From positions 840,001 through 872,000 of the forward strand of contig NC_014408.1 in NCBI RefSeq assembly GCF_000145295.1: a DNA stretch of 32,000 nt, read 5' to 3'. The notes under the pieces were generated by a model. That model searched no databases and had not been told where the DNA came from. It saw only the letters and a program-made list of their open reading frames with translations. A program made the translations under genes and the position numbers. Within the stretch, counting starts at the first letter, position 1; each line of letters begins with the position of its first letter. Origin of the DNA: Methanothermobacter marburgensis str. Marburg (lineage in GTDB: Archaea > Methanobacteriota > Methanobacteria > Methanobacteriales > Methanothermobacteraceae). This document shows positions 3,417 to 27,973 of this stretch, in pieces.

Positions 3417-4292
3417 CTAGATACACCCCGTCTGATTCTCAAGTTCAACAATGACCCTTCTGAGGAGCTCTGAGTCGAGATTCCATTTATCCCCATGAAG
3501 CTCAATGAGGCCCCGAAGTTCAAGTTCCTCAAGTTCGCTGCTCCCTGCAGGTATTTCATCCCCTCCAAGGGGGCCCTCCTTTAAAAGACTCAATATATTC
3601 TTTTCCCTCAGGGTTAGGCTGTTAAGTTCAGCGATCCATGGGAAGGCTATCTGCTGAAACTTTGCCTTGAAGTTCTCCTCAAGGAGCACGGGGCCGTATA
3701 TGATTCCATCTGATAGTACATTCAGGAAGCTGTCAATGAATAGAGGCATACCATCTGTGACCTCATGGATATATTCTATTCCAGCCCTGACAGCCCTGAA
3801 ACCCGGTGCCTTGAGGCTGATGTACCTCTCTGTGTCTCTTTCTGTGAGGGGTGGCACCTCAACAACAGCCGCCCCTGGGAGTTCCTCCTGAATATCCCTG
3901 ATAAGTCCCTCGCTGTACCTCACTGCCACAGCACACCGCATGCAGTGCAGCTGCGACATCTTCCATGCATCAATTATGGATGACTTCTCAGGGGGCATGC
4001 TGTCAAGGAGCACATTCCACTCCACGGTTCTTGCAAGAACAGTTATCCTCCTGAAGTCAGGTATGCCCTCATGGGTCCTTCTGATATCGGTGCACCTCAT
4101 ATCAATGAAGGTTGTTCTTGTGGAGTTTTCCTCCTGGATTCTCCTGAGAATAGCGGTTTTTCCTGAGCCCATCTTACCCGTCACAACCACAAAGCCGGGG
4201 TCATTGAGGGCTTCATTAATCCTTCTTATCTCCTTTTCTCTTCCAAAAAAATCGTTTGTCCTGTTTAAAGAGATTATGGGCATTGAGGACAC
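3417..4292 (-). CDS. Archaeal-type (ORC/STAND-like) P-loop ATPase with a C-terminal wHTH-like domain; probably degenerate Walker B
   Basis: FFGREKEIRRINEAL is followed by the Walker A VVVTGKMGSGKTAIL, and VVEVPPLTERDTERYI is typical of the 'ATPase domain predominantly from Archaea' layout. I see no hhhhDE Walker B; the nearest match is WNVLLDS. The C-terminal LTLREKNILSLL...LELRGLIE looks like a wHTH. The gene lies 40 nt downstream of the CARF gene on the same strand. Confidence 0.8.
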   Translation of the reverse strand: MSSMPIISLNRTNDFFGREKEIRRINEALNDPGFVVVTGKMGSGKTAILRRIQEENSTRTTFIDMRCTDIRRTHEGIPDFRRITVLARTVEWNVLLDSMPPEKSSIIDAWKMSQLHCMRCAVAVRYSEGLIRDIQEELPGAAVVEVPPLTERDTERYISLKAPGFRAVRAGIEYIHEVTDGMPLFIDSFLNVLSDGIIYGPVLLEENFKAKFQQIAFPWIAELNSLTLREKNILSLLKEGPLGGDEIPAGSSELEELELRGLIELHGDKWNLDSELLRRVIVELENQTGCI

Positions 4293-4332
4293 TTTAATTC
4301 CTTATAGGTTAAGATGTGTCCATGAAAATGAT

Positions 4333-4935
4333 TTAAAGCACTGCAAGTTCGCCTGCAGAGGTTATTTCAAGTTTTTCACGGTCTATGAACCCCATGTCAC
4401 GGAGTTCCCTTATGTGGTTGTATGTCATCCCCCTGCTTATACCTATCTTGACTGCAAGGTTCTTAACCGATGTTTCACCGGCCTTGAGTTCCTCAAGGAC
4501 CTGTTTCTTGGTCTTGGAGATCCCGAAGCTCAGTATTGGGAGGTCTATGAGTTCACTGTCCTCCTCGGTCACGTACACTATGCGCTGGACATCATGGTTC
4601 CTGGCATAGCAGCCAAAGAGTGCACCGAGTGCCTGGGTCTTCCTGCCACCGCTTATGTTAACCACAACACGCCTTCCGTTGGCCCTTTCCTCATCTATGA
4701 TCTCAACCATGTCCTTTGCAATGGTGACAACATCATAAAGGCTTGTCTCAAATGTCGTTATCTCAACGAAGTTGCCCAGGGTGTCTCTGAGGACCTGTTC
4801 GACCTGTTCCTTCTCCCTTGGCGCCTTATCCTCCTTGAGCAGTACAACCTTCTTTGGTGAGAACTGTGTTATGCAGAACATCACCGGCTCAATGGAGTAT
4901 ATTGTGGATATCAGCGTTGTATCCATTATTATCAC
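4333..4935 (-). CDS. csa3: Csa3-like regulator: N-terminal CARF domain plus C-terminal winged HTH (CRISPR-locus-related DNA-binding protein family)
   Basis: A Rossmann-like N-terminus carries [15 protein letters not shown], a CARF-type GG-R/K-T loop. The C-terminus [30 protein letters not shown] is an HTH. The ORF opens at GTG 4935, but ATG at 4926 ([11 protein letters not shown]...) is the likelier start. Confidence 0.8.
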
Positions 4936-6553: not shown

Positions 6554-7243
6554 GTGCATTTGAAAAGGTGCTCAAACTGTGGATCAGAAAACAGGAGAAA
6601 TGCTGTCTTCTGTTCCAGCTGCGGGTTTAAACTTAACTCAGGGGGGAGTAACAGCTGGTGGAAAAAGCAGAGCCAGACATCAAAGGTCCTAATAGCGATT
6701 ACAATCCCATTTATCCTGATTATTGCCATTGCGATTACAGCAACCGTATTTAGCGATTACGGTACTGAATCCGATTATGATAGTGTCGATGCAACTGGAG
6801 GGTCAGCGTTAACAGAATCATACCTAAATAAGTTCAAGGGCAATGGAATCTCATTCAGTTACCCCAAGACATGGACTATCTACACACCAGAAGATAAGAG
6901 TTCAGATGCCGTCGTTGATCTCAAATCTTATGATATGGGTATAAACTCCATCATGACCGTCTATAAAAAACCCTACACCCTTGATGCTGAAGCACTAAGG
7001 GACATCTGGCTTGAGGTATGTTATGAAAAAGGGGACACCGTGGAATATGTGAAGGAAATCAAGGTTGATGGCAACCGGGCATATGCCATAAAATCATTTT
7101 ATTATTCAAATGGATGCGGAGAGCATGAGTACATTGTATTCACAGACGGCACATATGAATACTCCTTGCTTTTCACATCTGATGACATCTCACTTATACA
7201 GGATGATATAGACACAATTATAAGGAGTTTCAGGGTTGAGTGA
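6554..7243 (+). CDS. Zinc-ribbon / TM / extracellular-domain protein
   Basis: The N-terminal double CxxC ribbon is CSNCGSENRRNAVFCSSCG, followed by the TM helix VLIAITIPFILIIAIAITATVF and an exported alpha/beta domain (GISFSYPKTWTIY...). GGAGGTG at 6548-6554 favours TTG 6560 (MKRCSNCG) as the true start. Confidence 0.75.
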   Translation: MHLKRCSNCGSENRRNAVFCSSCGFKLNSGGSNSWWKKQSQTSKVLIAITIPFILIIAIAITATVFSDYGTESDYDSVDATGGSALTESYLNKFKGNGISFSYPKTWTIYTPEDKSSDAVVDLKSYDMGINSIMTVYKKPYTLDAEALRDIWLEVCYEKGDTVEYVKEIKVDGNRAYAIKSFYYSNGCGEHEYIVFTDGTYEYSLLFTSDDISLIQDDIDTIIRSFRVE

Positions 7244-7799
7244 TATGGATTCCGACAGGATGATTCCGGTTATTGCAGCGGTTATGGTGGCTCTTCTGTT
7301 GACAGCCGGTGCACTGCAGCTACTCAGGGGTAGCAGTGTTCCAGAAGATAAAGATGAAGCGGCAACAGTTGAAAAAACCTCAGATGGATACCAGCTGAAC
7401 CTTCAGGCTGTCCTTGAACTTGCAGAGATGGACTCAGGTAACGGTACAGTAGAATACAGGGGATTCAACTTCACAGGCCCCCAGTTACTATACATCTTTG
7501 CAAGGGGGGTTGTGATGCTGGAACTCAATGAGACAGGAAAGATCCATGTGGGTGAATACAGTGGCCCTGAGGACCCCTATGGATTCATGGATACCGTTAC
7601 CCTTACAAGGAGCGAATACACCGATATGGCGGAGCGCACATACACATGGATGGACGCCAATGGCAGAAGCCCCAACCATGTTGGTATCTATGTTGAGGGA
7701 TCCCCCGACATAACCCCATCCCTTGCAAGGAAGATCTTCAGACAGGTTCTGGTTGAATACAGGAGGACAGGGACTCTACCTGAAGTGGTGAGTGCCTAA
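7236..7799 (+). CDS. Membrane-anchored protein with a pseudomurein-binding-repeat (PMBR)-like segment
   Basis: The TM helix is MIPVIAAVMVALLLTAGAL. LTRSEYTDMAERTYTWMDANGRSPNHVGI...ITPSLARKIFRQVL matches, from memory, the PMBR pattern (A-x-R-V-x-x-Y-x-E-x-N-x-R-x-P-N-x-V). The gene overlaps the upstream gene by 8 nt. Confidence 0.7.
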   Translation: MSDMDSDRMIPVIAAVMVALLLTAGALQLLRGSSVPEDKDEAATVEKTSDGYQLNLQAVLELAEMDSGNGTVEYRGFNFTGPQLLYIFARGVVMLELNETGKIHVGEYSGPEDPYGFMDTVTLTRSEYTDMAERTYTWMDANGRSPNHVGIYVEGSPDITPSLARKIFRQVLVEYRRTGTLPEVVSA

Positions 7800-7901: not shown

Positions 7902-8588
7902 ATGCAGAGAAAATTGATCCTATCACTCATAATCACAGGAGCCCTAATCACGGTTTACCTGCTGAACCCCTCCCTCCACAGCACAGATAGGAACGAAGCT
8001 GTGGTTCTCGGCTCTGATAAGATGGGCACAGTTGAGAAACTTGGACCCTACGGGAACAGGGACTCAGAGGTGAAAATAGCCTACATAACAGGAGTCCACC
8101 CCCTTGAGAGGGACTCCCACAGGGCATTGCTGCAGGCCCTTGAGGAGAACCAGGATAAACTGAGGTACACGTACTTCGTATACCGGGTCAACGTTACATT
8201 TAAGCCGGAGGACTATGAAAAGGGGAGGATGGCAGGACAGCTCCTTGCACGAAGATACGTGGTTCCCGATGTATCCCGGGACAACTACAGCCTCGCAGTT
8301 GATGTGCACTCCAACAGGGGCAACTATGGTATGAGGAGGTTCGTTTTCACTCCACTCCCCCATGATCAAAGCAGGGTGATAGCCCTGAAACTTGCATCCA
8401 GGATCAGCTGGCTATCCTACTACTTCCCTGAGTCACAGACAAGCCCCGCCTATGTAACGGAACCCATAATTCAGGGGGGAACACCCGCCATACTGTATGA
8501 GAACTACATGTACCAGGACTACTCAAGAACCCTGGAACATGCCAGGGAGTTTGTAATAACCCTTGACTCCACTGACATCCCCTCATAA
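7902..8588 (+). CDS. Signal-anchored exported protein with an HxxE...H motif; possible zinc hydrolase or amidase (function speculative)
   Basis: The N-terminal hydrophobic anchor is LILSLIITGALITVYLL. The motifs ITGVHPLERDSH and AVDVHSNRG resemble the metal-ligand arrangement of M14/AstE-like or gamma-glutamyl hydrolase-like enzymes. This is motif-level evidence only. Confidence 0.65.
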   Translation: MQRKLILSLIITGALITVYLLNPSLHSTDRNEAVVLGSDKMGTVEKLGPYGNRDSEVKIAYITGVHPLERDSHRALLQALEENQDKLRYTYFVYRVNVTFKPEDYEKGRMAGQLLARRYVVPDVSRDNYSLAVDVHSNRGNYGMRRFVFTPLPHDQSRVIALKLASRISWLSYYFPESQTSPAYVTEPIIQGGTPAILYENYMYQDYSRTLEHAREFVITLDSTDIPS

Positions 8589-8906: not shown

Positions 8907-9596
8907 GTGGTTGATGTATGCGCTGCGAATGGATATGATGAGATATCAGAAAAACTGAAGACCCTGCTTGGACTTGAAAAGTCCCCGGTGGCTATAAAAC
9001 TCGTTCTAAGGGAGGATGACCTTCCTGAGGGCGTTGAAAAAATAGAGAAACCTGCAAGGCACTGTGAAATGGTCCAGATGGCCGCTGCAGGAAAATCCTT
9101 CTATGCAACGGCAGAGGCCCAGGCATGCAAGGGTGGTGCAGATGCCCTTGGAATAGACGAGGCGCCAGAGAAGGTCAAAACAGGGGAGTTCTACTACAAC
9201 CTTGGCCGCTTTGCAAGTTTTGCATCCGCCAAGAGGACCTTTGATGAGATACCATCCGTTGACCTCAGGTTCTACGCCGCAGTATACGCACCCCTCGAGG
9301 ATGCAACCTTTGACCCTGACGTCATAGTCATCATCTGCAACCCTGCCCAGGCAATGAAGATCTCACAGGCCCTCGTCTACACCCTGGGTGGCCGCGTTGA
9401 GGCAGACTTCTCAGGTATACAGTCACTCTGTGCAGACGCAGTTGCAGGCCCCTACATGAGGAAGAAGGCAAACATAACCATGGGGTGCAGCGGTTCAAGG
9501 CAGTACGCCGGTGTAAGGGATGATGAACTCATCGTGGGGCTCAACGGTGAGAACATAGGGTGTGTTGTCAACGCTCTTGAGGCAATAAGCCAGTAG
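8907..9596 (+). CDS. DUF169-family protein
   Basis: A GGTGA SD is 5 nt upstream of GTG 8907. The sequence pattern LLGLEKSPVAIKLV...PARHCEMVQMAAAGKSFYATAEAQACKGGADALGI is typical of DUF169. Confidence 0.85.
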   Translation: MVDVCAANGYDEISEKLKTLLGLEKSPVAIKLVLREDDLPEGVEKIEKPARHCEMVQMAAAGKSFYATAEAQACKGGADALGIDEAPEKVKTGEFYYNLGRFASFASAKRTFDEIPSVDLRFYAAVYAPLEDATFDPDVIVIICNPAQAMKISQALVYTLGGRVEADFSGIQSLCADAVAGPYMRKKANITMGCSGSRQYAGVRDDELIVGLNGENIGCVVNALEAISQ

Positions 9597-9892: not shown

Positions 9893-10549
9893 CTATTTCC
9901 TTTTAACTCCAAAATATTCCCTTATTCTGAGGTAATCACTGTAGTGGTTTATATTTACAAGTTCAATGGGGTCTGATGCCTCAACACCGTACAGCCTGAT
10001 GCCATCATCCACCATCAAACGGAGCAGAGGATTTATATTTCCATCACCCATTGGAAGGTACCTTTTAAGGAGCTCTGAGCTCGCTGCAAGGGGCATCCCG
10101 AGGCCCTCGGCGCTATCAAGCCAGCCACTCATTCCCCTTGCAAGTACCGAAACCGTCTCAGAATCAGCGTGTTCACTGATCCTCCCCATGGTCTCAGGGG
10201 ATACTGCAGGCTGGTCTCCGGCGATACAGAGTATGATTTCGCCGGAAGCAGATAGAACACCATTGAGAAGTGATGCCGAGAGTGGAACATCCGCAGGATC
10301 GTTCCTCACAATCTCAACATCCAGACCTGATATCGCAGCCTCCACCTCCTCTGCGTGGTGGCCTGTTACAATGATGCACTCATCCACACCAGCCCTGAGC
10401 ACGGAATCCAGAGTTTTCTCTATTACAGTAACTGAGTTGAGGGGGAGCAGTAATTTGTGGACAGGCTCAAGGCCGAGTTCCTGCATGTCCCTGCACATAC
10501 GGCTACCCCTCCCTGCCGCCGTAACAACAGCTGAGATCAACTCCACCAC
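9893..10549 (-). CDS. MobA-like (NTP_transf_3 type) nucleotidyltransferase
   Basis: The N-terminal VVTAAGRGSRM nucleotide-binding loop and CIAGDQP motif are typical of MobA/MocA-like NTP transferases. The GTG start directly abuts the TAG stop of the upstream gene (10550-10552). Confidence 0.8.
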   Translation of the reverse strand: MVELISAVVTAAGRGSRMCRDMQELGLEPVHKLLLPLNSVTVIEKTLDSVLRAGVDECIIVTGHHAEEVEAAISGLDVEIVRNDPADVPLSASLLNGVLSASGEIILCIAGDQPAVSPETMGRISEHADSETVSVLARGMSGWLDSAEGLGMPLAASSELLKRYLPMGDGNINPLLRLMVDDGIRLYGVEASDPIELVNINHYSDYLRIREYFGVKRK

Positions 10550-11737
10550 CTATGCCGGTTCAAGTCTGTAGATTCTGGCGTATATGGTTGTACCTGCACC
10601 TGAACCCGTCGTCCACATCTCAATGAGTACCGGGTACCTTCCCGTATTTCTGACCTTTATCCCGGTCGCCGGGTTGAATCCGAATAGAACCGCATGGAAC
10701 TCCCAGGTCATTCCCCTGGGGAGTGGCATCCCTGCGTCAGTTACAACGGCCCTGAGGGCCCTTGCAGGTGGACATGAGCCGTGGGACGCGTATCCACCTG
10801 GGGCCTTGGGGTCCCTTGATGCAGTGAACCTGACGGTCTCCTTACCTGAACCCTCACTTCCCGGTGGAATCACAGTGCCATTCCATGCCGCCGCGAATGC
10901 CCTTGCATTGAAGGCCCTCTTGTTATCATCATACTGGGGATATGAGCCCAGGTAGCTCACTGCAGATGATACCAGGACCTTCCTGTAGCCCCCCGTGTAC
11001 ACCATGACAGGCGACCCTGAGGGGTAGTTCTCCATGTACTCAAGGACATCCTTGCCAAAGAGTTCCTCTATCCTCGCTGGTGAAACAGGGAGCCTGCCAT
11101 CGCTGAAGTTGGAGAGCTGGTAGTCCAGAACTATCTCGTCACCATCATCAGCCCTTCTGAACCACCTCTTTATCCTGTTAACTGATTTGTACCTGTGGGG
11201 GACGGTGCTGTTGCTTATACTATCTGCAGGGACAAATCTAACCTTCCTTCCGTTCTCAATGATATCCATACCATTGCTTCTCTTGACCCCATAGGTGTAG
11301 GGTGTCTTGTAGGCCCAGAGGAAGACCGGTGGCTCCTGAACCACCAGTTTACCCCCTGAAACCCTCAGTACCCCAGGACCGTCCACAGTGGATCTTCCTG
11401 AGGGGTCCATCCCGGAGGTCATCTCGGATATCGGGACATGCACGGCCCCTGTGAGGACCGCTTGGAGGAGGTTCCCGGGGTCCATGTAGTTGAATTCATC
11501 AAGTATGTAGTCCGGGTGGAGTATGAGAGGGACGCTCCTCACCCGGGACTCATCGATGACATCCTGGCCCTTCAGTACCGTGCTTCCAGGCTCAAGGGCA
11601 GCTATCTCCACTGGATCTTGGGGTTCAACACTCCCCTCAATGTATGCACCTGATGCTGTTATGATGGCTGCCACAATAACCAGAAAAATGATGTGCTTAC
11701 CTGATATAATCCTCTGCATATCTGAATCCCCCCTCAC
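10550..11737 (-). CDS. N-terminally membrane-anchored exported protein with a VanW-like C-terminal domain carrying an SHGSC motif
   Basis: The TM helix is HIIFLVIVAAIITASGAYI. The C-terminal WNGTVIPPGSEGS...GGYASHGSCPPARALRAVVTDAGMPL...EFHAV...IKVRNTGRYPVLIEMWTT...TIYARIY parallels, from memory, the VanW-family pattern (PGE-FS ... GGG-C-Q-S-LY-A-AG ... H ... F-N-t-pi-I). The likely start is ATG 11719, after a GAGGGGGG SD. The gene overlaps the ligase gene's 3' end. Confidence 0.8.
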   Translation of the reverse strand: MRGDSDMQRIISGKHIIFLVIVAAIITASGAYIEGSVEPQDPVEIAALEPGSTVLKGQDVIDESRVRSVPLILHPDYILDEFNYMDPGNLLQAVLTGAVHVPISEMTSGMDPSGRSTVDGPGVLRVSGGKLVVQEPPVFLWAYKTPYTYGVKRSNGMDIIENGRKVRFVPADSISNSTVPHRYKSVNRIKRWFRRADDGDEIVLDYQLSNFSDGRLPVSPARIEELFGKDVLEYMENYPSGSPVMVYTGGYRKVLVSSAVSYLGSYPQYDDNKRAFNARAFAAAWNGTVIPPGSEGSGKETVRFTASRDPKAPGGYASHGSCPPARALRAVVTDAGMPLPRGMTWEFHAVLFGFNPATGIKVRNTGRYPVLIEMWTTGSGAGTTIYARIYRLEPA

Positions 11738-14714
11738 CGATTATGAGTACGGTGTCATCTGGTTCTGCAATTTCAAGGGCCTTACTGACGGCCTCCTCAA
11801 CCTGTTCACGGCTCGCTCCAAGGGTCCCAGCACCAGCACGTTTTCTGCTGGATTCTATATGGACCACCCTCTTACTCAGGATACTGGAGGCTCTCCTTGC
11901 AGCATAGGAGGCCGGTATAACGGTGTCGGCATCCTTCAGGAGCGATGCGATTTCCAGGTCCCCATCGATTCCACTCTCAGATGCCACGGTGTTTACGACT
12001 ATCAGCCTTCCATCGGTACCTTTAAGTTCCTGCATCACCGCCCTCACGCCGGCCGGGTTGTGGGCGTAGTCAAGTATGACCCGTGGTGAGTCCATCAGCT
12101 TCTGGAACCTTCCCCTCACACCACTGAATGACTCAATTCCCCTCACTATATCATCCATGTCCACGCCAAGTGACCATGCAGCGGCAGCGGCTGCCAGTGC
12201 ATTGTAGACATTGAAGATCCCTGGTGTCCTGAGTTTCACATTCCTCATCTCGGAGCCTATCACCAGTTTGAATCCATCTGCAGATGCCTCCAGTGCCATA
12301 ACCTCAGGCTGGGGTCTCCGGTAGCCGCAGACACACTGGTAGTCCCCCAGGTGCCCCATGGTCCTGCGAGTATATTTGAGGTTGTTGCCACATTTGGGGC
12401 ATTCCCTCCCCTCTGGCATGACCGGGGCCGACTCCATACTCTGGATACCGTAGAGCACCGCTCTCTCCTCCCTCAGTCCCTCTGCGAATGATGCGACGAT
12501 GGGGTCATCGGCGTTGAGTACTATGACCTCTGCTGTATCAATGATCTCCCTCTTGCATTCAATGTAATCAGAGAACCTCCTTCCACCTGAAAGGTGGTCC
12601 CTTGATATGTTGGTTATGACGCCCACTGAGACCCCTGAGAGAAGGGCTGATTGCCTTATCTCACCCCTCCGCCCGAATGTCCCTATCTCAACCACCGCCA
12701 CGTCCCCAGGGAGTCTTGCCTGAAGGGCCGGTACCAGTTCGGTGTTGCCCTGTATGCTGAGGTGGTGCTCTGGCACAGTCTTTCCAGCAGCCCTAATTAT
12801 GGATTTGAGAATACCGGTGGTCGTGGTCTTTCCATTGGTCCCTGTAACTCCAACCACCGGTTTCTCAACAGGACACATATTCAGGACGTCCTCAACACCT
12901 ATCACATCAGCGTCAAGTCCACTGATAAGGTCAAGAACCCTTCTGTTATTCTCGAGGGCCGGTGTGATGGCTATGGTGCCAGCGCGCCTGAGGACATCCA
13001 TGCTGTGACCCCCAAGGTCAAGTTCTATTCCCTCCTCCCTGAAGACATCCTCGAGGGGTGTGCTTTCCTTCAGATCCGAGACAATTACCCGGTAACCCCT
13101 GGCCCTGAGGTTCCTTGCCATGAGGCTCCCCACATTTCCGCAGCCTCCAAGAACAACTATGGAGTCCCTCATTGACTCTATGGCCCTCTCAATATCATCC
13201 CTCACATTATCATAGGCGTTGACAACCCCTGGGCCCAGGTGTAGTACAGTATCCCCCTTTTCTGCGATTTCAAGCGCCCTCCTTATGCTATCATATACAC
13301 TCTCGGTCTTTATGGTTTTATCCCTGCCGGCACCCCCTTCAACCTCAGAGGCCGCTTCCATGTCAATCTTACCTGTTGTCTCATTCTTGCCGCTCACAAT
13401 TAATACATCAGCTCTTTCACCCAGTATCTGGCCTATCCTGTATTTGTCCCTCACTGTGAGGGTGTCAGGGTTGTCCAGGCTTATTATCAGCCTTCCCTTG
13501 AATTCAATGCCCTCAAAGAGTTTCTCCATGCTCTCAGGGTTGTGGGCTGCGTCCATATAAACAGGCACACCATCAACCTGATCTATGAATTCGAATCTAC
13601 CCTTTATACCCCTAAATTCCTCTAATGCATTTTTAATATCCCTAATGTCAAATCCGAGTACCAGTGCAACGGTTATGGCTGCAAGGGCGTTCTCCACATT
13701 GAAGAGACCCGGTACCCTGAGTTTTATCCTCTCTGTAAGGGGCCCGATATGGATCACACCATCATGTTCCCCACAGTTTAAAGATCCGCACATGCTGCAG
13801 AGGGCAGTCGGTATCTCTGAGACCTTCAGTGTGAACTCTGAGCCCTCAAGACCCATGAGGTCTATGTCTGTTGCGCTGACCTGTGGTTCTGCCGAGCCAC
13901 TGAAGGTTCTGTCCATGAACTCAACTTTCCTTTCATTTCCCAGACCATAGACAACACTTTTAACCTCAAGGTCATCCAGGAGCCCTGCGATTACCGGGTC
14001 ATCTCCACAGAGTACCAGAACACCCTCCGGGGCTATGAGGTTCTTTATTGAGAAGTTTCTCTCAATGTATTCGTCGTAGTCCCTGAACTCATCCATGTGG
14101 TCTGGTGTGAGGTTTGTCACAACACCAGCCACTATTTCAAGGCCATCAGCCATCCTTATGGTCCCATGTGGGAGTTCAAACACGGCCATGTCCCTGTTAC
14201 TCACATCACCATTCACCACAAGTTCAACGAGTCCCTCAATGACCAGTGAGTCCTGGATCGATGAGAATGACACCGTCCTGTAGCGTGAGGAAAGTATGTG
14301 GTCTATCATGTTGGTGGTTGTTGTCTTTCCGTCTGTCCCTGCAACTCCCACCATGGGGATGCCTATGAGCTGGTTCAGGACCCTCCCGATATCTGATGTT
14401 GTTATGTGAATAAGATCCTTCTCCACACTCTCCAGCATCCCCCGTACCGGTGCATCAGAGGGGATGCTGGGTGATACGAAGACGGCGTCGGCCCAGAGCA
14501 TGTCCTCAATCCTGTGACCCCCTAACCTGAACCTTACACCCTCCCTTTTCATTTCATCTATTCTCTTCCTGGCCTTGGGGGGCAGTTCATCCAGTTCCCT
14601 GAGGTCATTCACAAGCACACTGTTCCCAAGGTGTCTCAGCAATCTTGCGGCGGGTCTGCCAGCGTTTCCAGCTCCAAGCACAAGCACTTTCATGTTCCTG
14701 ATCAATTTATGCAC
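11697..14714 (-). CDS. Tandem fusion of two complete Mur-ligase-family modules (MurD/MurT-like); candidate pseudomurein peptide ligase
   Basis: Module 1 has MKVLVLGAGNAG (Rossmann), VGVAGTDGKTTTT (P-loop), CSMCGSLNCGEH and YMDAAHNPES. Module 2 has IVVLGGCGNVG, VGVTGTNGKTTTT, CPKCGNN...YQCVCG (Cys4 ribbon) and ILDYAHNPAG. The alternative start ATG 14693 (MKVLVLG) is likely. Confidence 0.9.
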   Translation of the reverse strand: MHKLIRNMKVLVLGAGNAGRPAARLLRHLGNSVLVNDLRELDELPPKARKRIDEMKREGVRFRLGGHRIEDMLWADAVFVSPSIPSDAPVRGMLESVEKDLIHITTSDIGRVLNQLIGIPMVGVAGTDGKTTTTNMIDHILSSRYRTVSFSSIQDSLVIEGLVELVVNGDVSNRDMAVFELPHGTIRMADGLEIVAGVVTNLTPDHMDEFRDYDEYIERNFSIKNLIAPEGVLVLCGDDPVIAGLLDDLEVKSVVYGLGNERKVEFMDRTFSGSAEPQVSATDIDLMGLEGSEFTLKVSEIPTALCSMCGSLNCGEHDGVIHIGPLTERIKLRVPGLFNVENALAAITVALVLGFDIRDIKNALEEFRGIKGRFEFIDQVDGVPVYMDAAHNPESMEKLFEGIEFKGRLIISLDNPDTLTVRDKYRIGQILGERADVLIVSGKNETTGKIDMEAASEVEGGAGRDKTIKTESVYDSIRRALEIAEKGDTVLHLGPGVVNAYDNVRDDIERAIESMRDSIVVLGGCGNVGSLMARNLRARGYRVIVSDLKESTPLEDVFREEGIELDLGGHSMDVLRRAGTIAITPALENNRRVLDLISGLDADVIGVEDVLNMCPVEKPVVGVTGTNGKTTTTGILKSIIRAAGKTVPEHHLSIQGNTELVPALQARLPGDVAVVEIGTFGRRGEIRQSALLSGVSVGVITNISRDHLSGGRRFSDYIECKREIIDTAEVIVLNADDPIVASFAEGLREERAVLYGIQSMESAPVMPEGRECPKCGNNLKYTRRTMGHLGDYQCVCGYRRPQPEVMALEASADGFKLVIGSEMRNVKLRTPGIFNVYNALAAAAAAWSLGVDMDDIVRGIESFSGVRGRFQKLMDSPRVILDYAHNPAGVRAVMQELKGTDGRLIVVNTVASESGIDGDLEIASLLKDADTVIPASYAARRASSILSKRVVHIESSRKRAGAGTLGASREQVEEAVSKALEIAEPDDTVLIIGEGGFRYAEDYIR

Positions 14715-14860: not shown

Positions 14861-16072
14861 TCATTCACAGGAGGAGATCTCCTCGAGTTTTTCCTGGACC
14901 CTGATTATCCTGTCCTGACCGTTTCCACCCACGAAGATCCTCCTGTATTTCCTGGAAAACTCAAGGACCATACCGGGGATTTCATCAGGGTCATCAACCG
15001 TTATGACCTCTGATGGGATTTCAAGGCCCTCAAGGTATTCCATTACCATGTCAACCGTGTCCTCAAGGCCAGGGAATATCACAAGGACCTCCGGTGGTGA
15101 CTCTGCAACCTCATCAAGGATACGGAGGCGCCACTCCTCTGACCTCCTGGGGGTCCCGATGAACATGACATCGAATTCTGATTCTGAGAGTACTGCCCTC
15201 AGGGCATGGGGGTTGTCGGTTTTACCTGCCACAACATATGCTCCGTTAATGATGAAGGACCTTATACGGCCCCTCACAGGCTCGAAACCGGCAAGCCCTT
15301 CCCTTATGATATACTCTGGAACCCCAAGATACCTGAGGGCCTCTGATGCGGCCCCTGCGTTCAGTCTGTTGAATCCACCCTCAACCCTCAGGGGCCCGGT
15401 GTACTCACTGTAGGTCCTGAGAAGCCGGGGAGCCTCCCTGAGTTCTCCATCTGACTCCGCGGGGCCGACTACAGCATCCCTTCCCTTCAGAAATTCTGCC
15501 ACCATCCGCCTGTAGTTCTCCATTGACCCGTGGAAGTCCATGTGGTCCTCGCCAAGGTTTGTGAGGACCACGAGGTCAATATCAAAGCACTCTGATGCGA
15601 ATTCCAGGGTCATATCGCAGACCTCCACCACCAGGTAGTCGAATTCCTCCTCAGATGCCCTTAAAAAGAGTTCTGTGTAACCCTCAAATCCGCCGCCAGC
15701 ATTTCCGCCAAGAAGCACCCTTTCACCTGCACATTCAAGTACATGTGCCATCATTGTGGCTGTTGTGGTCTTTCCATTGGTCCCTGTGACCACAATGGTT
15801 TTGGGCTTCCTGTGGCCCTCAAGGACCCTGCAGAGGAGTTTATCCCTGAACCGCTCCATGAATTCAGTTTTTATCATTGATGGGCTGATTACAACCGCAT
15901 CTGCAGCCCCTATCTTTTCCGTGTCATGAAAGCCAAGGTCAAGGTCAACTCCCTCAGGTTTTGCAGGGATTTCGCGCCGTATGTCACTTGCATATACGCT
16001 GTGACCCCTTCTCTTCAGTGACTCAACTGCCCTTAAACCCTCAGCTCCAAGTCCCAGCACCGCAACCCTCAT
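14861..16072 (-). CDS. MurD-like Mur-ligase-family protein; candidate pseudomurein peptide ligase
   Basis: A GGTGA SD lies 4 nt before the ATG. Motifs are MRVAVLGLGAEG (Rossmann), VVTGTNGKTTTATMM (P-loop) and a C-terminal domain with GKTDNPHALRAV, a variant of the DxAHNP motif. Confidence 0.9.
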   Translation of the reverse strand: MRVAVLGLGAEGLRAVESLKRRGHSVYASDIRREIPAKPEGVDLDLGFHDTEKIGAADAVVISPSMIKTEFMERFRDKLLCRVLEGHRKPKTIVVTGTNGKTTTATMMAHVLECAGERVLLGGNAGGGFEGYTELFLRASEEEFDYLVVEVCDMTLEFASECFDIDLVVLTNLGEDHMDFHGSMENYRRMVAEFLKGRDAVVGPAESDGELREAPRLLRTYSEYTGPLRVEGGFNRLNAGAASEALRYLGVPEYIIREGLAGFEPVRGRIRSFIINGAYVVAGKTDNPHALRAVLSESEFDVMFIGTPRRSEEWRLRILDEVAESPPEVLVIFPGLEDTVDMVMEYLEGLEIPSEVITVDDPDEIPGMVLEFSRKYRRIFVGGNGQDRIIRVQEKLEEISSCE

Positions 16073-21487: not shown

Positions 21488-21536
21488 TCAAAAATGGAAA
21501 TAAAATTATTTGCGGGCTTTTAAAAATTTAGCCCGC
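21488..21536 (-). terminator. rad50 operon terminator: GC-rich hairpin spanning the stop codon, followed by U-tracts
   Basis: GCGGGCT (21512-21518) pairs with AGCCCGC (21530-21536) as a 7-bp stem with an 11-nt loop. Downstream on the minus strand is AAATAATTTTATTTCCATTTTTG. Confidence 0.5.
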
Positions 21537-24041
21537 CTTCTGTATGGTGGATACACCGTCGGACTTTTCAACCCGGTATATGTGGTCTGCAAGGTTTTCA
21601 AGTTCCTCCTCATGGGATACCAGGATTATCTGTCTGGCTTCAAGTTCATCGAAGATGTCTCTGAGCTTGTAGAGCTGCTCCTTGCTGAACCCATCGGTTG
21701 GCTCGTCCAGTATGAGTATATCAGACCGCACATCGGTGAGGCTCTGGACCACCATGTTGAGGGCGAGTCTGTAGGCAAGTGCTATGCTGGTCCTCTCACC
21801 ACCACTGAGGTACTCCAGGTTCTGTTCGTAGCCGTCCTGCTCCACAATGGGTGTGAAGTCCTCGTCAATCCGCACCGATTTATCCGGGTCATCCACAAGG
21901 ACCCTGAACCATTTCTGGAACCTCTCATTGAACTCATGGTTTATCTGTGCCATCACATGGGTCTCAATGTCAGCGAGTGCAGGGATGAAGTAGGATTCAA
22001 GCCAGGTCACATGATCATTCAGTTCACTGGCACGTTTTCTGAGTTTATTCTTTTCATCAATTTCAGCGTTAAGCCTTTTGATCTGATCATCTTTTTCCTC
22101 GATTTTTCCCCCAATGGATCCTATCATGTGTTTCTTCTTATCCCTTGATTCTTCACTTTTACTAAGTTTTTCACGGACCTCCCGTATACTGACCTCCACC
22201 TTCTCCCTGTTTTTGAGTGCCTCCTGGTTTTTCTTTATTTCCTCTTTCTTTTCAGCGATGATTGTAGCATTTTCCTCAATCTTCTGGAGGTTCTCTCCGT
22301 ATTCCCTGCTGGTTTCAGGGTTGAGTTCATGAATTCTTTTTTCAAGGTCCTCTATCTTCGAATCTGATGCTGAAAGTTCGCTGAAACAGTTCTTCTCCCT
22401 TTTAAGGAGGGCTTCCAGGTCCTCCTCAATTTTTCTGAAATGGGATTCCACATCCTTCAGTTCACTGATTATCCTTTCATTTTCCTTTATATCTGATTCA
22501 ATGCCTTTGATTTCTTCCTTCTTATTCTCAAGTTCCTTCTTTTTTTTCCCATATTCGGTTGTCTTCTTCTTAAGGTCCTTCCTGAGTCTACTGAGTTCTT
22601 CCCTAGACCGCATGTATTCTCTCACAGCTTCAAGGAGTTTGTTTTTATTTTCGATTTCAGCTTTGATCTCCTCTATGCTGGATTCAATTGAACCTTCCCT
22701 CTTCAGGGCATCATCGAGTTTATCAGTTATGTAGCTGGGGTCCACATCCTGGTCACATGTGGGACAGACACTTCTATCTCTGATGGACATGTAGGCATTT
22801 ATCTTCTCTGAGATGGCACCCTGCTCCTGCTGGAGCTTTGCTTTATCGTCCTCAAGTTTCGCTATATCAGCTTTCAATTCATCCTCACTGTATCCAGGAT
22901 CCTCAAGGGACTCCAGTTTTCCTATCTCTGATTTGAGGTCGTCAATCTCACCCTTAATTGTGGTGATTTCACGTTCCACATTGTCCATGACACCTGAAAG
23001 GGTCTTAAATTGATTCTTAAGACCTTCAAGCTTGGTAGTAGCATCTCTGAACCTTTCATAGTCATCTCTGATGGATTTTTCCTCATCCTTCATCTTTTCA
23101 ATATCATTTCTGAGTGAATCATGTTCCTCCTGAAGCTTTTTCCTCAAATCCTTGCACTTCTGAAGTTCATCCATGGATTTCTTATATTCTTCCTCTATGT
23201 CCCTGTTTTTCCTCTTGAGACTATCTGAGAATGAACTCAGGTTTTCAATTTCATTCTTGAGGGATTCTATCCTATCTTCAGCAGCCCGAATCTTGTTTTC
23301 CTCCTTTTCGAGTTCTTCAAGTTCCAGTTCGAGTTTGCTGATCTCATCCTCGATTTCTTTGAGTTCAGCTTCGAGATTTTCCCTCTCAGATTCCAGTTCC
23401 CCCTTCTCAGTGATAATATTGTTGAGCTCATTTTTCTTATCATCAAGGTCGTAGGATCTATCCTCAAGGCTTTCTGCGGATCTCCTAATTTTCCGCGAAA
23501 GCAACCTGGCATTATCCGCTGCTCTGCTGTACTTCTCAAGGTCGAAGGCCTTTCTGAGCCTTTCAAGCCGCTCATTTTTTCCGGTCTCTATTATGCTCTT
23601 CATCTGCTCCTGTGGGGTGAAGACCGCGTAACGGTATATCCTGCTCCTGGCCCTTGGATTCAGGGGTTCCCTGTAACCCAGGATGTTAAGTACCTCGGCC
23701 TTCAGTTCCTTTGCAGAGAGTTTCCTTCTCCCTGTGGGTGTTCTGATGTAGAGTTCCCCCTGCTGCACCCCTGAGGCGGCCCTTTTAAGTTCCCGGTAGA
23801 TGGTGTACTCTGCACCGTCAACAGTGAAGGTGAGTTTGACTGAACCTGAATTTGCTGTAGCCCTCAGAAGGCTGTCACCCCTCTGGTCACCCAGCCCGAA
23901 GAGTGCGAATTCTATTGCAAGTAGAAGCGTCGTCTTACCTGAACCTATATCGCCCTCAAATAGGGTCACTCCATCATCAAACTCGACAGTTCCTGATTCA
24001 TAGCTCCTTATGTTCCTGAGTTCAAGTGAATTGATAATCAA
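21528..24041 (-). CDS. rad50: Rad50 DNA double-strand-break repair ATPase
   Basis: Motifs are Walker [21 protein letters not shown], a long E/K-rich coiled coil with the zinc hook SVCPTCDQ, the signature [17 protein letters not shown] and Walker [11 protein letters not shown]. The start is TTG at 24041, preceded by a GGTGGTGA SD. Confidence 0.95.
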
Positions 24042-24114
24042 AGAGTATCACCACCAGCATATCAGTTACCTGGATTCACCCGAGAGCAGGTCAACACCAT
24101 CATCTCTCCTGAGG

Positions 24115-25380
24115 TCATCGGTTATCATCATCCAGATTCACCCCCATGACGGCCTCTGCTTCCTCAATGACCCTCCTCTCATATTCTTCCTTCTTCTCAC
24201 CGGGGGCCATCTCATTCTCAAGTTTCCTGAGGAGTTCAACCGCCAGTGAGTCGCCCCTCTTCATGAGACTTTTGTTTCTGATGTCAAGGCCGGAGAGTTT
24301 CTCCCTGAAGATTCTCCTCTCAAGTGCGGGGATGTCACTCTCAGCGACCCTCACCTTCTGTATCTCACGGGTGCTGAGGCCGTGCCTGTTGATCTGGACA
24401 ACACGGGCCCCCCTGGATTCAAGTTCCCTCCTTATCCATGCTGAATCTATGTCCGAGGTCCTGCCTGAGCTGAGCTCACCCCGGATCTTGAACATCACAA
24501 CCTTTCCCTTAACATCGTGTTCTCCCATTTCCCTGCCTATGAGGAGGGATGCGTCATGGGAGTTCTTACCTGTAACATCACATTCTATGTATTCAAATTC
24601 AGCTGGCATTATAACCCTGAACTGGGGTGTTTTTGCCTTTTCCCTGAATTCAACAAGGTAGTACCCCCTCTTCTCTCCCCTGGCGTTCTCCTCAAGGTCC
24701 CCTGCATATGAACCGAAGAGTGCCCCCGGGTATACTATAGGGCCGTAGCCCTCCTCCATGTAGCAGCCCCTCCTGTGGACGTGGCCCCCTGCATAGTACT
24801 CAAGGCCACGGGGGAAGAGGTTGAGGTCGATGGAATCCATCTCTGCAAAATCAACGGGTTTGAACTGGGTTATGGCGCTGTGGAACAGGAATATCCTGAA
24901 GCCGTCCTCGGCCTCAAGGACCTCCCTGTCAAGGTTTCTGAAGTAGTCAACCTCCAGCGCCCTTGACCTCCCTGATAAACCAGTGATCTTTGCCCCGGTC
25001 TTCTCATCCACTGTGAACTCCAGTCCCAGCTTCTTCCCGGGGATGGGGCGCACAACCTTCTCTATGACCCCCGCGGTTTCCAGTATGTCTATCATGGAGG
25101 TGTTTGATGGGCTGTAGTCGTGGCTACCATAGTTGACGTAGATTGGGACCCCCTCATCCCTGACCCTCCTGAGTTCCAGGGTGGCCCTCTTGACGGTCTC
25201 CATGTTTGGGATGTTGGAGTGGAAGAGGTCCCCCGCTATTATCATGAAGTCGACGTCATTCTCCAGTGCATCATCCAGTGCCATCCTGAAGGCCTGGAAT
25301 TCCAGTTCCCTGAGTTCAGGCTGTTTCTGGGCCCCCAGGTGGCAGTCTGATAGGTGCGCGAATCTGTACATCAGTTTCAC
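24115..25380 (-). CDS. mre11: Mre11 nuclease (calcineurin-like phosphoesterase)
   Basis: Phosphoesterase motifs are [25 protein letters not shown] and GGHVHRR. The likely start is ATG 25371 (MYRFAHLSD), because the GAGGTGA SD overlaps the herA stop. Confidence 0.93.
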
Positions 25381-25381
25381 C

Positions 25382-26908
25382 TCATCCTATGAATTCGATG
25401 TCCCCCTCATCTTCATCCTCATGATCCATGGATTCAATGAACTCCTCAAAGAGTGGTATCTTCACGGGTACCGCGAACTTTGTGAATATGCTGCTAACTA
25501 TGGCCTCACCCTTATCCAGGCTTGCTATTGCCCTGTTGTCATCTGAGAGGTCCTGGGAGGCGCTTCCTATTATCTCAGCCCTCTCCTGGGCCATCTCATT
25601 CCCCAGGATTATCTTGGTGTTCATGTTTGCAAGGACCGTCCTGGGGATGAGGCTTACGAGCTGGGTTATGGCGACCAGGCCTATGTTGAATTTACGGCCC
25701 TCCCTTGCGATGGTGCTGTAGATGTTGTTTCCCTGCCTCTCAATGACCTCCTTTCCAAGGACACGGGGGGCCTCCTCTATCACTATCCCTATGACGGGTT
25801 TTCGCCTGAGCTCCCCTGTGGACTTGTACTTCTGGTACCTCCTGAAGATCTCACCGGATATCACGCTCCCAACGAGGAGTTCCGCCTCGCCCATGAGCCT
25901 GGATGTGTCCACCACGACTATCTTTCCCTCCTCAAGCTGTGATACTATGTCCTTTATGGTTGAATCCCCCCCTGTCTCCCGGAATACGCCTCCACGGGAC
26001 TTTATCTCACCTGTATCCTCATCCAGGTAGACACCGAGGATCACATCGAAGACCCTCCGGAGGACGCTCAGTGTTCTGGGGTCCACATTTTCAACGGCTT
26101 CACCACCAACGATTCTGATGATCCACCCATCACCGTACATTTTATGGTACTTTGCAATTGCCTGCTCCTGGGGCTGTGTGAACGGTATTATACCCTCAAA
26201 GTGCTCAGGTCTCAGTGTCCTCAGGTTTATGGCGAGTGTGTTTCCACCGACCGGTGCATCCGGGGAGTAGTAGACCACGTTACCTGACGGGTGCTTTCCG
26301 AGTCCTGCCTCGTTCCTCCCATAGTACTCGTCGTGGGGGTCCAGCACCAGCATGCCCACGCGGTCCATCTCCGCCAGGCTCCAGAGCATGACCTTCACAA
26401 GGTTACTCTTACCCCTGCCTGTGGTTGCAGGTATGAGGATATGGTGGGTTATGGCGTCAACCGCATCAATGTAGACTGGTGTCTCCAGGACCTTTGAGCC
26501 GCTCCTCACATTCCCAAGGAAGACCGGATTGCGGGGCTTTTCAAGGAAATCAAGGTCCCCATCCCTTATCCTCCTGACCTCCCCGAAGAACCCCGGGAGG
26601 CGTTTGGGTAGCATTGGCTCCCCATCCCTCACATGGAGTATGGGGCGGGCCTCTGCGATGATGTAGTTCCGTAGTTCGGGTTCAAGGAACTCCACGTCCC
26701 CGCTGTAGCCCTCAAGGTTGAAGCCTGATGCAAGCTCCCTCATCCCCTGGGGTATCTGGGACCTGTATTTGAGGTCCTTGACCTGGAGTATCGTGTAGCC
26801 ATCCCCCTCAGCGACAAGGAGGTCCCCGAGTTCCACCTGTTCACCTGATTTCTGCCTTATGAGTACCGCGGCCGTTTCACCGCCTATTATCTGTCCTGCA
26901 GCTTCCAT
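25382..26908 (-). CDS. herA: HerA hexameric DNA helicase/translocase (FtsK-HerA superfamily)
   Basis: An N-terminal HAS-barrel-like region precedes Walker [14 protein letters not shown] and Walker B-like [10 protein letters not shown]. The ATG directly follows the nurA TGA stop. Confidence 0.93.
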
Positions 26909-27973
26909 TCAATCCTCTCCTGCATACCTGTTCAGTTCGTCATGGTAGTTAATGGTCTCCAGCTCATCCCTTATACCTTCAAGGACCTCCCGGGACCTGA
27001 TCTGTGATAGGAGCCTCCTCCTGTATATCTCCACCTCATCCCCTGAGACTCTGGCCCTCATATCCACGTCCACCAGGCCGTAGGGGTAACCCGGGAAGCA
27101 TGCATCCCTGGCGTTCTCTGAGAGGGCTGATGCCACTACCTGTGCATCATCCCTTCCGCACTCTCCAAGGATGTCCATCCTGAATATCCGCCCTGCGGGG
27201 TTCAGCTTAACCGCCGTGAGGGTTGTTGCCCTGTCTGTCCTCACGGCTATGGGGTGGTAGCACCATGGCCCCTCCATACCCATCTCTGAGGCAAGCCTCC
27301 CTATGGCTGCAAGGAGTGAGATTGAGGTGGTCGTGTAGAGGGTGCATGTCTTTGAGAGTCCGGCAATATGGATATCCCCTGACTCCTCCCAGAGTTTTCT
27401 TATGTAACTGTTCTCCTTCTCAAAGGATGCCTGCAGTGATCCGTCCCTGACCAGTATATCGCCATCCTGGAGTTCATCCAGCGCCCTCCGTGCCATGCTC
27501 CACTCTGCGAATCGCCTGGGAAGGCCCTTGAGGGTTGACTCATCAAACAGCTCTGCATCGCCAAGTTCCAGGTGAAGATCCTCCTCATCAGGCAGGAATT
27601 CCCTGTAATCCTCCATGATGGGGTGGATCTGGAATGTGCACATTTCATTCCCCGGGTGGATCCTCATGACCGATAGGAACTCAACCACCGGTGGTATCTC
27701 TGGCTGGATCCTCCTGGTCCCCATGAAGAGGCCCAGTGCAACCCTGTTGAGCTGGACCGATATGGTTGGCCCCTCCAGTATGGGGCTGTTGCCGCCGTCT
27801 ATGAAGGCCATGCGCCTCTCTTCTCCTCCTTTGATGGACAGGAAATTATCCCTGCTGAATTCATGCACCCTGTATCTTGCTGACCTGAAGTATGGCCTTC
27901 CGATATCTGACCTCACGGTAGCCTGGAGGGTCTCTGCAATCCTATCAAAAATGTCCAATAAAAAATCCCCCAT
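26909..27973 (-). CDS. nurA: NurA 5'-3' nuclease
   Basis: Motifs MAFIDGGNSPIL and ILVRDGSLQ match the NurA catalytic Asp motifs. The gene sits immediately upstream of herA in the conserved archaeal operon. Confidence 0.85.
   Translation of the reverse strand: MGDFLLDIFDRIAETLQATVRSDIGRPYFRSARYRVHEFSRDNFLSIKGGEERRMAFIDGGNSPILEGPTISVQLNRVALGLFMGTRRIQPEIPPVVEFLSVMRIHPGNEMCTFQIHPIMEDYREFLPDEEDLHLELGDAELFDESTLKGLPRRFAEWSMARRALDELQDGDILVRDGSLQASFEKENSYIRKLWEESGDIHIAGLSKTCTLYTTTSISLLAAIGRLASEMGMEGPWCYHPIAVRTDRATTLTAVKLNPAGRIFRMDILGECGRDDAQVVASALSENARDACFPGYPYGLVDVDMRARVSGDEVEIYRRRLLSQIRSREVLEGIRDELETINYHDELNRYAGED

Follow-up and report, generated by a model that had tools for sequence, protein, structure and literature searches.

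How is pseudomurein cross-linked outside the cell? This has been a long-standing question since the polymer was described; the methanogens that make it have neither penicillin-binding proteins (PBPs) nor YkuD enzymes, and PBP-like genes are lacking in these organisms (PMC2812497; PMC10117817). The only published candidates for the cross-linking step are transglutaminases, the genes of which are unclustered. The same question is raised by a gene in the stretch of DNA analysed here, which comprises 32,000 nucleotides of Methanothermobacter marburgensis str. Marburg (assembly GCF_000145295.1, contig NC_014408.1, positions 840,001 to 872,000 of the forward strand). This whole stretch is called the window, and coordinates are positions within it unless another locus is named. 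The gene lies on the minus strand, within a pseudomurein gene cluster, and encodes a member of the Mfer335 family, to which the name PmurA has been attached. On balance, its product is best read as a type-II-anchored, external, VanW-like cysteine acyl-transfer enzyme that would act on the stem peptides of pseudomurein.

The Mfer335 family and its VanW-like domain

The open reading frame (ORF) at 10550..11737, with a GTG start and 395 amino acids, is present in the ORF list exactly as it was described in a first-pass annotation of this DNA, which had been made from the letters alone. The strings quoted there (PPGSEGS, PGGYASHGSCPPARALRAVVTDAG, EFHAV and IKVRNTGRYPVLIEMW...IYARIY) are all found in the sequence, and PGGYASHGSCPPA is encoded where it had been placed, the exact span being 10763-10801 and not ~10764-10801. 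That the gene is conserved, and the ORF not a product of chance, follows from its 232 homologues (word-indexed search) and from the match of the product to NF053640, "Mfer335 family protein PmurA", which scores 537.2 bits (cut-off 400) and aligns residues 19-394 with profile positions 1-378. None of the homologues has a precomputed Pfam domain, and those with names all belong to Methanothermobacter, Methanobacterium, Methanobrevibacter or Methanobacteriaceae. When 1.84 billion cluster representatives were searched exhaustively with an HMMER profile, nothing came back except the Mfer335 family and its fragments, and the family is reported to be confined to pseudomurein producers (PMC10117817). 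Three proteins were rejected as relatives: P0179 and P0186, which in the HMMER profile search are uninformative low-complexity repeat proteins, and the metagenomic P0134, in which the family's N-terminal domain is fused with adhesin-like beta-helix sequence and which is probably an assembly chimera.

Thus, the protein is a full member of a family that has already been catalogued (NF053640; OG0001147 of Lupo et al. 2025; Mfer335 of Subedi et al. 2021) and the function of which is unproven. It has in common with the other members the position between a ligase gene and PmurB, the restriction to pseudomurein methanogens, and the N-terminal membrane segment. Only the functional reading differs: in the literature it is phosphoryl transfer (a glutamate kinase), whereas here it is an extracytoplasmic VanW-like cysteine enzyme.

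Conservation within the family was followed in two alignments, one of 34 diverse members (A1) and a larger one of 128 sequences; residue numbers throughout are those of the 395-residue product (GTG at 11737). The C-terminal part has the invariant residues R274-x-x-N277, W285-N286-x-T288-x-x-P291, D309, P340-x-G342 and N364 and, in the middle of these, the invariant motif H319-G320-x-C322-P323-x-x-R326-x-L-R329 (10751..10783, minus strand; alignments and structural model). His319 and Cys322 are present in 126/126 bona fide full-length members, including the most distant, P0136 (AAHGCCPPARALR). The cysteine that had been singled out beforehand, within an SHGSC string, therefore proved to be conserved across the orthologues, and it aligns with the catalytic cysteine of VanW proteins. 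The N-terminal domain has invariant residues of its own: G51, G97, P121, P136, W192, D213 and R215 (in FSDGR), F227, Y234 and Y247.

VanW domains were shown in 2024, by Bollinger et al., to be L,D-transpeptidases (LDTs) with a Cys-His-Asp triad (PMC11348318), and VanW LDTs are cysteine-dependent and anchored by an N-terminal transmembrane helix (PMC11348318; PMC12729407). They make up the second family of such enzymes to be recognised for bacterial peptidoglycan. The view that VanW function is poorly defined, which the first-pass annotation had taken as established, is therefore outdated, and the identification of VanW as an LDT family strengthens the inference of an acyl-transfer enzyme that the annotation had drawn. 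The divergent VanW-like domain of the window protein would comprise residues ~251-395 (10553..10987, minus strand), as delimited by profile-profile alignment (hhalign), secondary structure and weak Pfam matches. Near its start, the segment R274-x-x-N277...W285-N286-G-T-x-I-P-P292 (10855..10918, minus strand) matches the R-x-x-N-I...N-G-x-x-x-x-P-G-E of VanW. Among the 34 diverse members, VanW was the only recurrent Pfam family below threshold (10 of the 34, best E 0.0082), all others being hit in at most four members.

Two sets of genuine VanW proteins served for comparison, 120 of the VanW-B subfamily and 120 mainstream (YoaR-type) proteins; these had been fetched with VanW-like queries, and only returned database proteins that were already annotated with PF04294 were used. 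With the 120 mainstream proteins, hhalign aligned the family over the whole domain with a probability of 96.1-96.9% and E-values of 2.6e-10 to 1.8e-9, and an independent run with smaller alignments (A1 against A2) gave the same register with a probability of 71.6% and E 3.5e-5. The scores of the real comparisons were 51-55, whereas the controls (a reversed query, eight column shuffles and the N-terminal domain of the family) scored 10-21, with E-values of 0.02-0.7. The pairs aligned between the window protein and a genuine VanW protein (P0309) include R274-R76, N277-N79, N286-N88, G287-G89, P292-P94, G320-G131, C322-C133, G342-G166 and N364-N182; of the VanW partners, R76, N79, G131, C133, G166 and N182 are invariant or nearly so in VanW. 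Cys322 thus falls in the same column as the nucleophile of VanW (GGGVCQ), which in P0309 is C133. At the level of sequence profiles, the resemblance to VanW is a real remote homology, below the level of Pfam. The link between the Mfer335 family and VanW appears to be unreported, the literature that was searched joining VanW with pseudomurein nowhere.

The predicted structures are consistent with this alignment. An AlphaFold2 (AF2) model of the window protein, made with the family alignment, had a mean predicted local distance difference test (pLDDT) score of 89.6 and a predicted template modelling (pTM) score of 0.81, and a model of P0309, made from its own alignment, had a pLDDT of 89.9. In these two independent models the DSSP secondary-structure states agree at 96/125 (77%) of the positions aligned by hhalign, as against 20-46% in shifted registers. 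The elements follow one another in the same order in both (strand, helix, strand, strand, hairpin, cysteine-bearing helix, three strands), with the hairpin before the cysteine-bearing helix shortened in the Mfer335-family model. Helix 322-334 begins with Cys322, and in P0309 C133 is the second residue of helix 132-145. A Foldseek search with the full model of the window protein gave no match at E<0.001 in the Protein Data Bank (PDB) or BFVD. This is uninformative about VanW membership, because the model of the genuine VanW protein P0309 also found no match in the PDB; according to PMC11348318 no relatives of the VanW fold have been solved, and neither the PDB nor BFVD holds a VanW structure for superposition. 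A sequence search of the PDB returned noise only (E ~0.8). Some sub-threshold PDB matches were common to both models (DNA polymerase III beta subunit 6ap4, herring PGM5 6y8y/6y8z, and AcpS); these would hint only faintly at a local structural similarity and are not significant alone.

Predicted topology, putative active site and proposed reaction

Residues ~16-33 of the window protein (IIFLVIVAAIITASGAYI; 11639..11692, minus strand) form a hydrophobic segment that follows a positively charged N-terminus and is kept in all full-length homologues. In full-length members, this anchor is flanked by 2-6 basic residues on its N-terminal side and by a net acidic stretch on its C-terminal side, and AF2 models it as a helix (residues 13-36). 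Since this charge pattern obeys the positive-inside rule, the anchor is predicted to be oriented with its N-terminus inside, leaving a body of ~360 residues outside the cell, in agreement with what had been proposed from the single sequence. In most members the mature part has one cysteine only. Between the anchor and the VanW-like domain there is an alpha/beta domain (residues ~40-250; 10988..11620, minus strand), recognised from the alignments and modelled by AF2 with high confidence, which would also be extracytoplasmic. Searches of Pfam, the PDB and BFVD found no relatives of this N-terminal domain, and hhalign against VanW placed it at control level.

The plan of the protein resembles that of VanW LDTs (PF04294; for example Ldt4 and Ldt5 of C. 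difficile), in which a transmembrane anchor is followed by one or more accessory domains and then by an external catalytic domain. Further features in common are the order of secondary-structure elements, the alignment column of the nucleophilic cysteine, which is at or beside the first residue of the central helix, the positions of R-x-x-N, N-G, P, G-x-C, G and N, and a link to wall peptide metabolism. The differences lie elsewhere. The N-terminal domain has no relationship with PG_binding_4 or G5; the organism is an archaeon, and an all-L peptide with gamma and epsilon bonds would serve as substrate. The beta-hairpin before the cysteine is shortened, and the central helix has the sequence CPxxRxLR in place of CQVSSTLYNA, so that it bears two invariant arginines (R326 and R329) after the cysteine. 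The invariant His319, three residues before Cys322, replaces the middle glycine of the GGGxC of VanW.

Several observations weigh against a VanW-like acyl-transfer enzyme. With regard to detection, the match of the window protein to the Pfam VanW profile (PF04294) is partial (residues 274-303 against profile positions 2-31) and scores 12.1 bits (E 0.14), the gathering threshold being 27; the family consensus and six divergent members gave no VanW match in Pfam; plain HMMER searching of the large database does not join the Mfer335 family to VanW; and hhalign against the VanW-B subfamily alone gave the same register with an E-value of 0.088, which is not significant, significance being reached only with the mainstream (YoaR-type) proteins. 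The likeness to the VanW pattern that the first-pass annotation had pointed out is borne out between profiles (E 2.6e-10 to 3.5e-5) and falls short in Pfam (12 bits against 27). With regard to the active site, VanW alignments have a conserved histidine in ERHxH and a conserved aspartate in G-x-D-A-T-V. The 13-residue segment that contains ERHxH, the catalytic histidine segment, is absent from the Mfer335 family, and the aspartate of DATV is not conserved, the aligned position being T, S, N or D and the neighbouring D, E or G at 346 being variable. Because of these two changes, any catalytic machinery of the family would be rearranged relative to that of VanW. With regard to the genome, the gene for the most distant homologue, P0136 (L001/L002), is not beside Mur genes. 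With regard to the literature, certain genuine VanW proteins are without LDT activity (PMC11348318; PMC12729407), and Lupo et al. predicted neither a transmembrane segment nor a signal peptide for the orthologous group and favour exported transglutaminases for the cross-linking (PMC11915815). Taking the two sides together, the C-terminal domain appears to be a divergent relative of VanW with a rebuilt active site and not a plain member, since two catalytic features of VanW fail while the nucleophile and the scaffold are kept.

If so, the reaction can be envisaged as follows. The body of the anchored protein, of ~360 residues, would face the exterior of the cell, where pseudomurein is assembled, and the lineage-specific N-terminal alpha/beta domain may bind to, or position the enzyme on, the pseudomurein glycan or a lipid-linked precursor. 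By analogy with VanW, an exported stem peptide would be attacked by Cys322, which stands at the N-terminal end of the central helix, at the peptide bond that joins the last residue to the rest of the stem; that residue would leave, and a thioester would form on Cys322. An amine from an adjacent stem peptide could next resolve the thioester, which would give a cross-link, or water could do so, which would amount to trimming by a carboxypeptidase; the physiological reaction could thus be that of a transpeptidase, a carboxypeptidase, or both. The general base that activates Cys322 cannot be the VanW histidine, as the segment that bears it is deleted in this family, and would most likely be the invariant His319. 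The histidine of EFHAV, His348, had earlier been suggested as the partner of the cysteine in a dyad; this was rejected, as it occurs in just 10 of the 128 sequences.

A relationship with the YkuD LDTs (PF03734) had also been suspected, from the SHGSC string. Extracytoplasmic cysteine/histidine chemistry is plausible for both, and both have a His-Gly pair near the cysteine. The YkuD motif is, however, HG...SxGC(h)R and not (S/T)HGC, whereas the motif here is HGxCP. No YkuD match was found at E<=10 in any of the 34 diverse members, and the relationship was rejected; the fold is another one, VanW and YkuD not being superimposable (PMC11348318). The PeiW and PeiP endoisopeptidases and the exported transglutaminase-like proteins of methanogens resemble the Mfer335 protein in being cysteine-dependent and in having external pseudomurein peptides as their actual or proposed substrate. 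They differ from it in that no transglutaminase or papain-like similarity was detected in the Mfer335 protein, and in that their genes lie outside the pseudomurein biosynthesis clusters, whereas the Mfer335 gene lies inside one.

A narrower and more tentative proposal, which we regard as possible and not as probable, is that the Mfer335 family is the long-sought transpeptidase that cross-links pseudomurein, an archaeal offshoot of VanW with a rebuilt centre, and that the designation "PmurA, glutamate kinase" is wrong. The VanW fold would then have been taken up alongside the Mur-type ligases, or have been shared along with them, and the histidine at the third position before the cysteine would have replaced the histidine and aspartate of VanW in order to handle an all-L stem peptide with gamma and epsilon linkages. 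If true, this would be a further evolutionary link between the biosynthesis of murein and that of pseudomurein, beyond the Mur ligases and MraY, and would correct a functional name that is now spreading through genome annotation. A universally conserved, cluster-encoded and predicted outward-facing protein with a VanW-type cysteine would offer the cross-linking question a concrete target for mutation. It may also be a target through which methanogens of the gut and rumen could be inhibited, since meropenem inhibits VanW LDTs and thiol-reactive compounds inhibit cysteine enzymes.

Rather less probable, yet to be taken seriously, is that the protein has a VanW-derived fold and is not a cross-linker, being instead a hydrolase of stem peptides (a carboxypeptidase or endopeptidase) or a non-catalytic subunit, without the VanW triad, that binds or scaffolds the wall. 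The missing histidine and aspartate would fit such a role, as would the VanW proteins in which LDT activity is absent and the carboxypeptidase activity that VanW and YkuD LDTs also have (PMC11348318; PMC12729407); and these organisms have other candidates for cross-linking, namely the exported transglutaminases and a sortase-E-like gene. A structural role alone, however, would leave the invariance of His319, Gly320, Cys322, Arg326 and Arg329 unexplained, and the hydrolase variant has the same first chemical step as the acyl-transfer reaction set out above.

Explanations outside the VanW fold

It is distinctly unlikely that the VanW likeness is convergent or spurious, with D309, H319 and C322 forming part of an unrelated fold, for example as a metal-binding (metallopeptidase) or redox site. 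Sets of Asp, His and Cys can act as metal ligands, there is no match at the level of Pfam and no Foldseek match in the PDB or BFVD, and the hhalign probability falls to 72% with the smaller alignments. Against this, the profile-profile score is far above that of every control, the match spans the whole domain in a single register with nine conserved positions kept, and the secondary structure is co-linear between independent models; the missing PDB matches say little, as a genuine VanW model has none either.

The reading that is current in the literature places the protein in the cytoplasm, as an ATP-dependent kinase or nucleoside triphosphatase (NTPase) that phosphorylates glutamate as the opening step in the synthesis of the stem peptide. 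Its gene lies in a cluster with those for cytoplasmic Mur-type ligases and PmurB, and a phosphoryl-transfer step was suggested by Subedi et al. (PMC10117817); a 2026 paper hypothesised glutamate phosphorylation by PMurA, the recombinant M. ruminantium protein having hydrolysed ATP in vitro (PMC12996149), which also counts against an external acyl-transfer enzyme. Lupo et al., in contrast, list the orthologous group as an uncharacterised hypothetical protein (PMC11915815). This kinase is the least credible of the explanations, on account of topology, the lack of a nucleotide-binding signature and the VanW homology: the expected glutamate phosphate was not detected (PMC12996149); no kinase or NTPase family in Pfam or NCBIfam matches any of the 34 diverse members; the Walker A pattern, and with it an NTPase domain, was rejected, as it occurs by chance in 2/126 members at non-homologous sites; the PGExFSF motif of VanW is the aligned counterpart of the conserved "SGKE"; the conserved anchor, with its N-terminus inside, would put the body outside the cell, where there is no ATP; and the homology of the C-terminal domain is with a transpeptidase domain that lies outside the cytoplasm.

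The pseudomurein gene cluster and its surroundings

The start of the gene is probably not the GTG at 11737. An alternative ATG at 11719, which gives a product of 389 amino acids with the N-terminus MQRIISGKH, is favoured because it is preceded by the Shine-Dalgarno-like GGTGAGGGGGG and because the three nearest homologues are each 389 residues long. The Mfer335/"PmurA"-family gene would accordingly occupy 10550..11719 on the minus strand. Its stop codon (TAG, 10550-10552) directly abuts the GTG start (10549) of a nucleotidyltransferase gene, and its beginning overlaps the end of the upstream ligase gene, the stop codon of which (TAA) is at 11697-11699. The overlap is 23 nucleotides (11697..11719), or 41 counted from the GTG, and translational coupling with the upstream gene is likely, judging from the DNA read.

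The upstream gene (11697..14714, minus strand) encodes two fused ligases, pMurD1 (residues 8-514; NF053646, 484 bits) and pMurC (residues 520-1001; NF053645, 650 bits), in a single ORF of 1005 amino acids, and Pfam finds Mur_ligase_M and Mur_ligase_C domains in the product. The pMurD1 half contains the string CSMCGSLNC, and the pMurC half has a CxxC...CxC zinc-ribbon-like insertion (residues ~767-794) with a weak Zn_ribbon match. Farther upstream, on the same strand, is the gene for a further ligase, pMurD2 (14861..16072; NF053647, 554 bits, cut-off 550). The abutting downstream gene (9893..10549, minus strand) encodes the MobA-like nucleotidyltransferase PmurB/Mfer334 (NF053639, 274 bits, cut-off 260; NTP_transf_3).

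The order of genes, with a Mur-type ligase on one side and PmurB on the other, is kept in a ~40%-identical relative (locus L003), and the operon linkage, which the first-pass annotation had read from the overlap and the abutting gene, is supported. This neighbourhood does not contradict an external transpeptidase, because in bacterial dcw clusters ftsI, the gene for a membrane-anchored transpeptidase, stands directly beside murE. The locus corresponds to "Gene Cluster 1" of pseudomurein in Subedi et al. 2021 (PMC10117817), which was named "cluster B" in Lupo et al. 2025 (PMC11915815).

The gene for P0136 (L001/L002, 6001-7179) is flanked by genes for a TP_methylase and a MoaA-like radical SAM protein, with no adjoining PmurB. 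A DUF169 (COG2043) gene is divergent beside PmurB both in the window (8907-9596, plus strand) and in the ~40%-identical relative (L003, 8096-8782), which suggests a conserved synteny of DUF169 and PmurB.

A few genes from PmurB, at 7902-8588 (plus strand), there is a protein of 228 amino acids with an N-terminal hydrophobic segment and an H-P-L-E...D-V-H-S-N pattern that is reminiscent of the ligands of zinc carboxypeptidases; it had no sequence match in Pfam, NCBIfam or the PDB. Its position suggests that it may correspond to OG0000169, a "Zn peptidase" that is pseudomurein-specific according to Lupo et al., and it could supply or trim stem-peptide substrates. Also near the cluster is a membrane-anchored protein of 187 amino acids with pseudomurein-binding repeats (PMBR, PF09373, E 3e-16; 7236-7799, plus strand). 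The protein encoded at 6554-7243 (plus strand) combines a zinc ribbon at its N-terminus with a membrane segment and a PsbP-like domain on the outside (PF18933, E 3e-12). Elsewhere in the window, a Csa3-type CARF/HTH regulator (TIGR01884, E 2e-55) is found beside an AAA/STAND-like ATPase (3417-4935, minus strand), and the genes for Rad50-like, Mre11-like (Metallophos), HerA and NurA proteins (21528-27973, minus strand) form the usual archaeal operon for DNA end resection.

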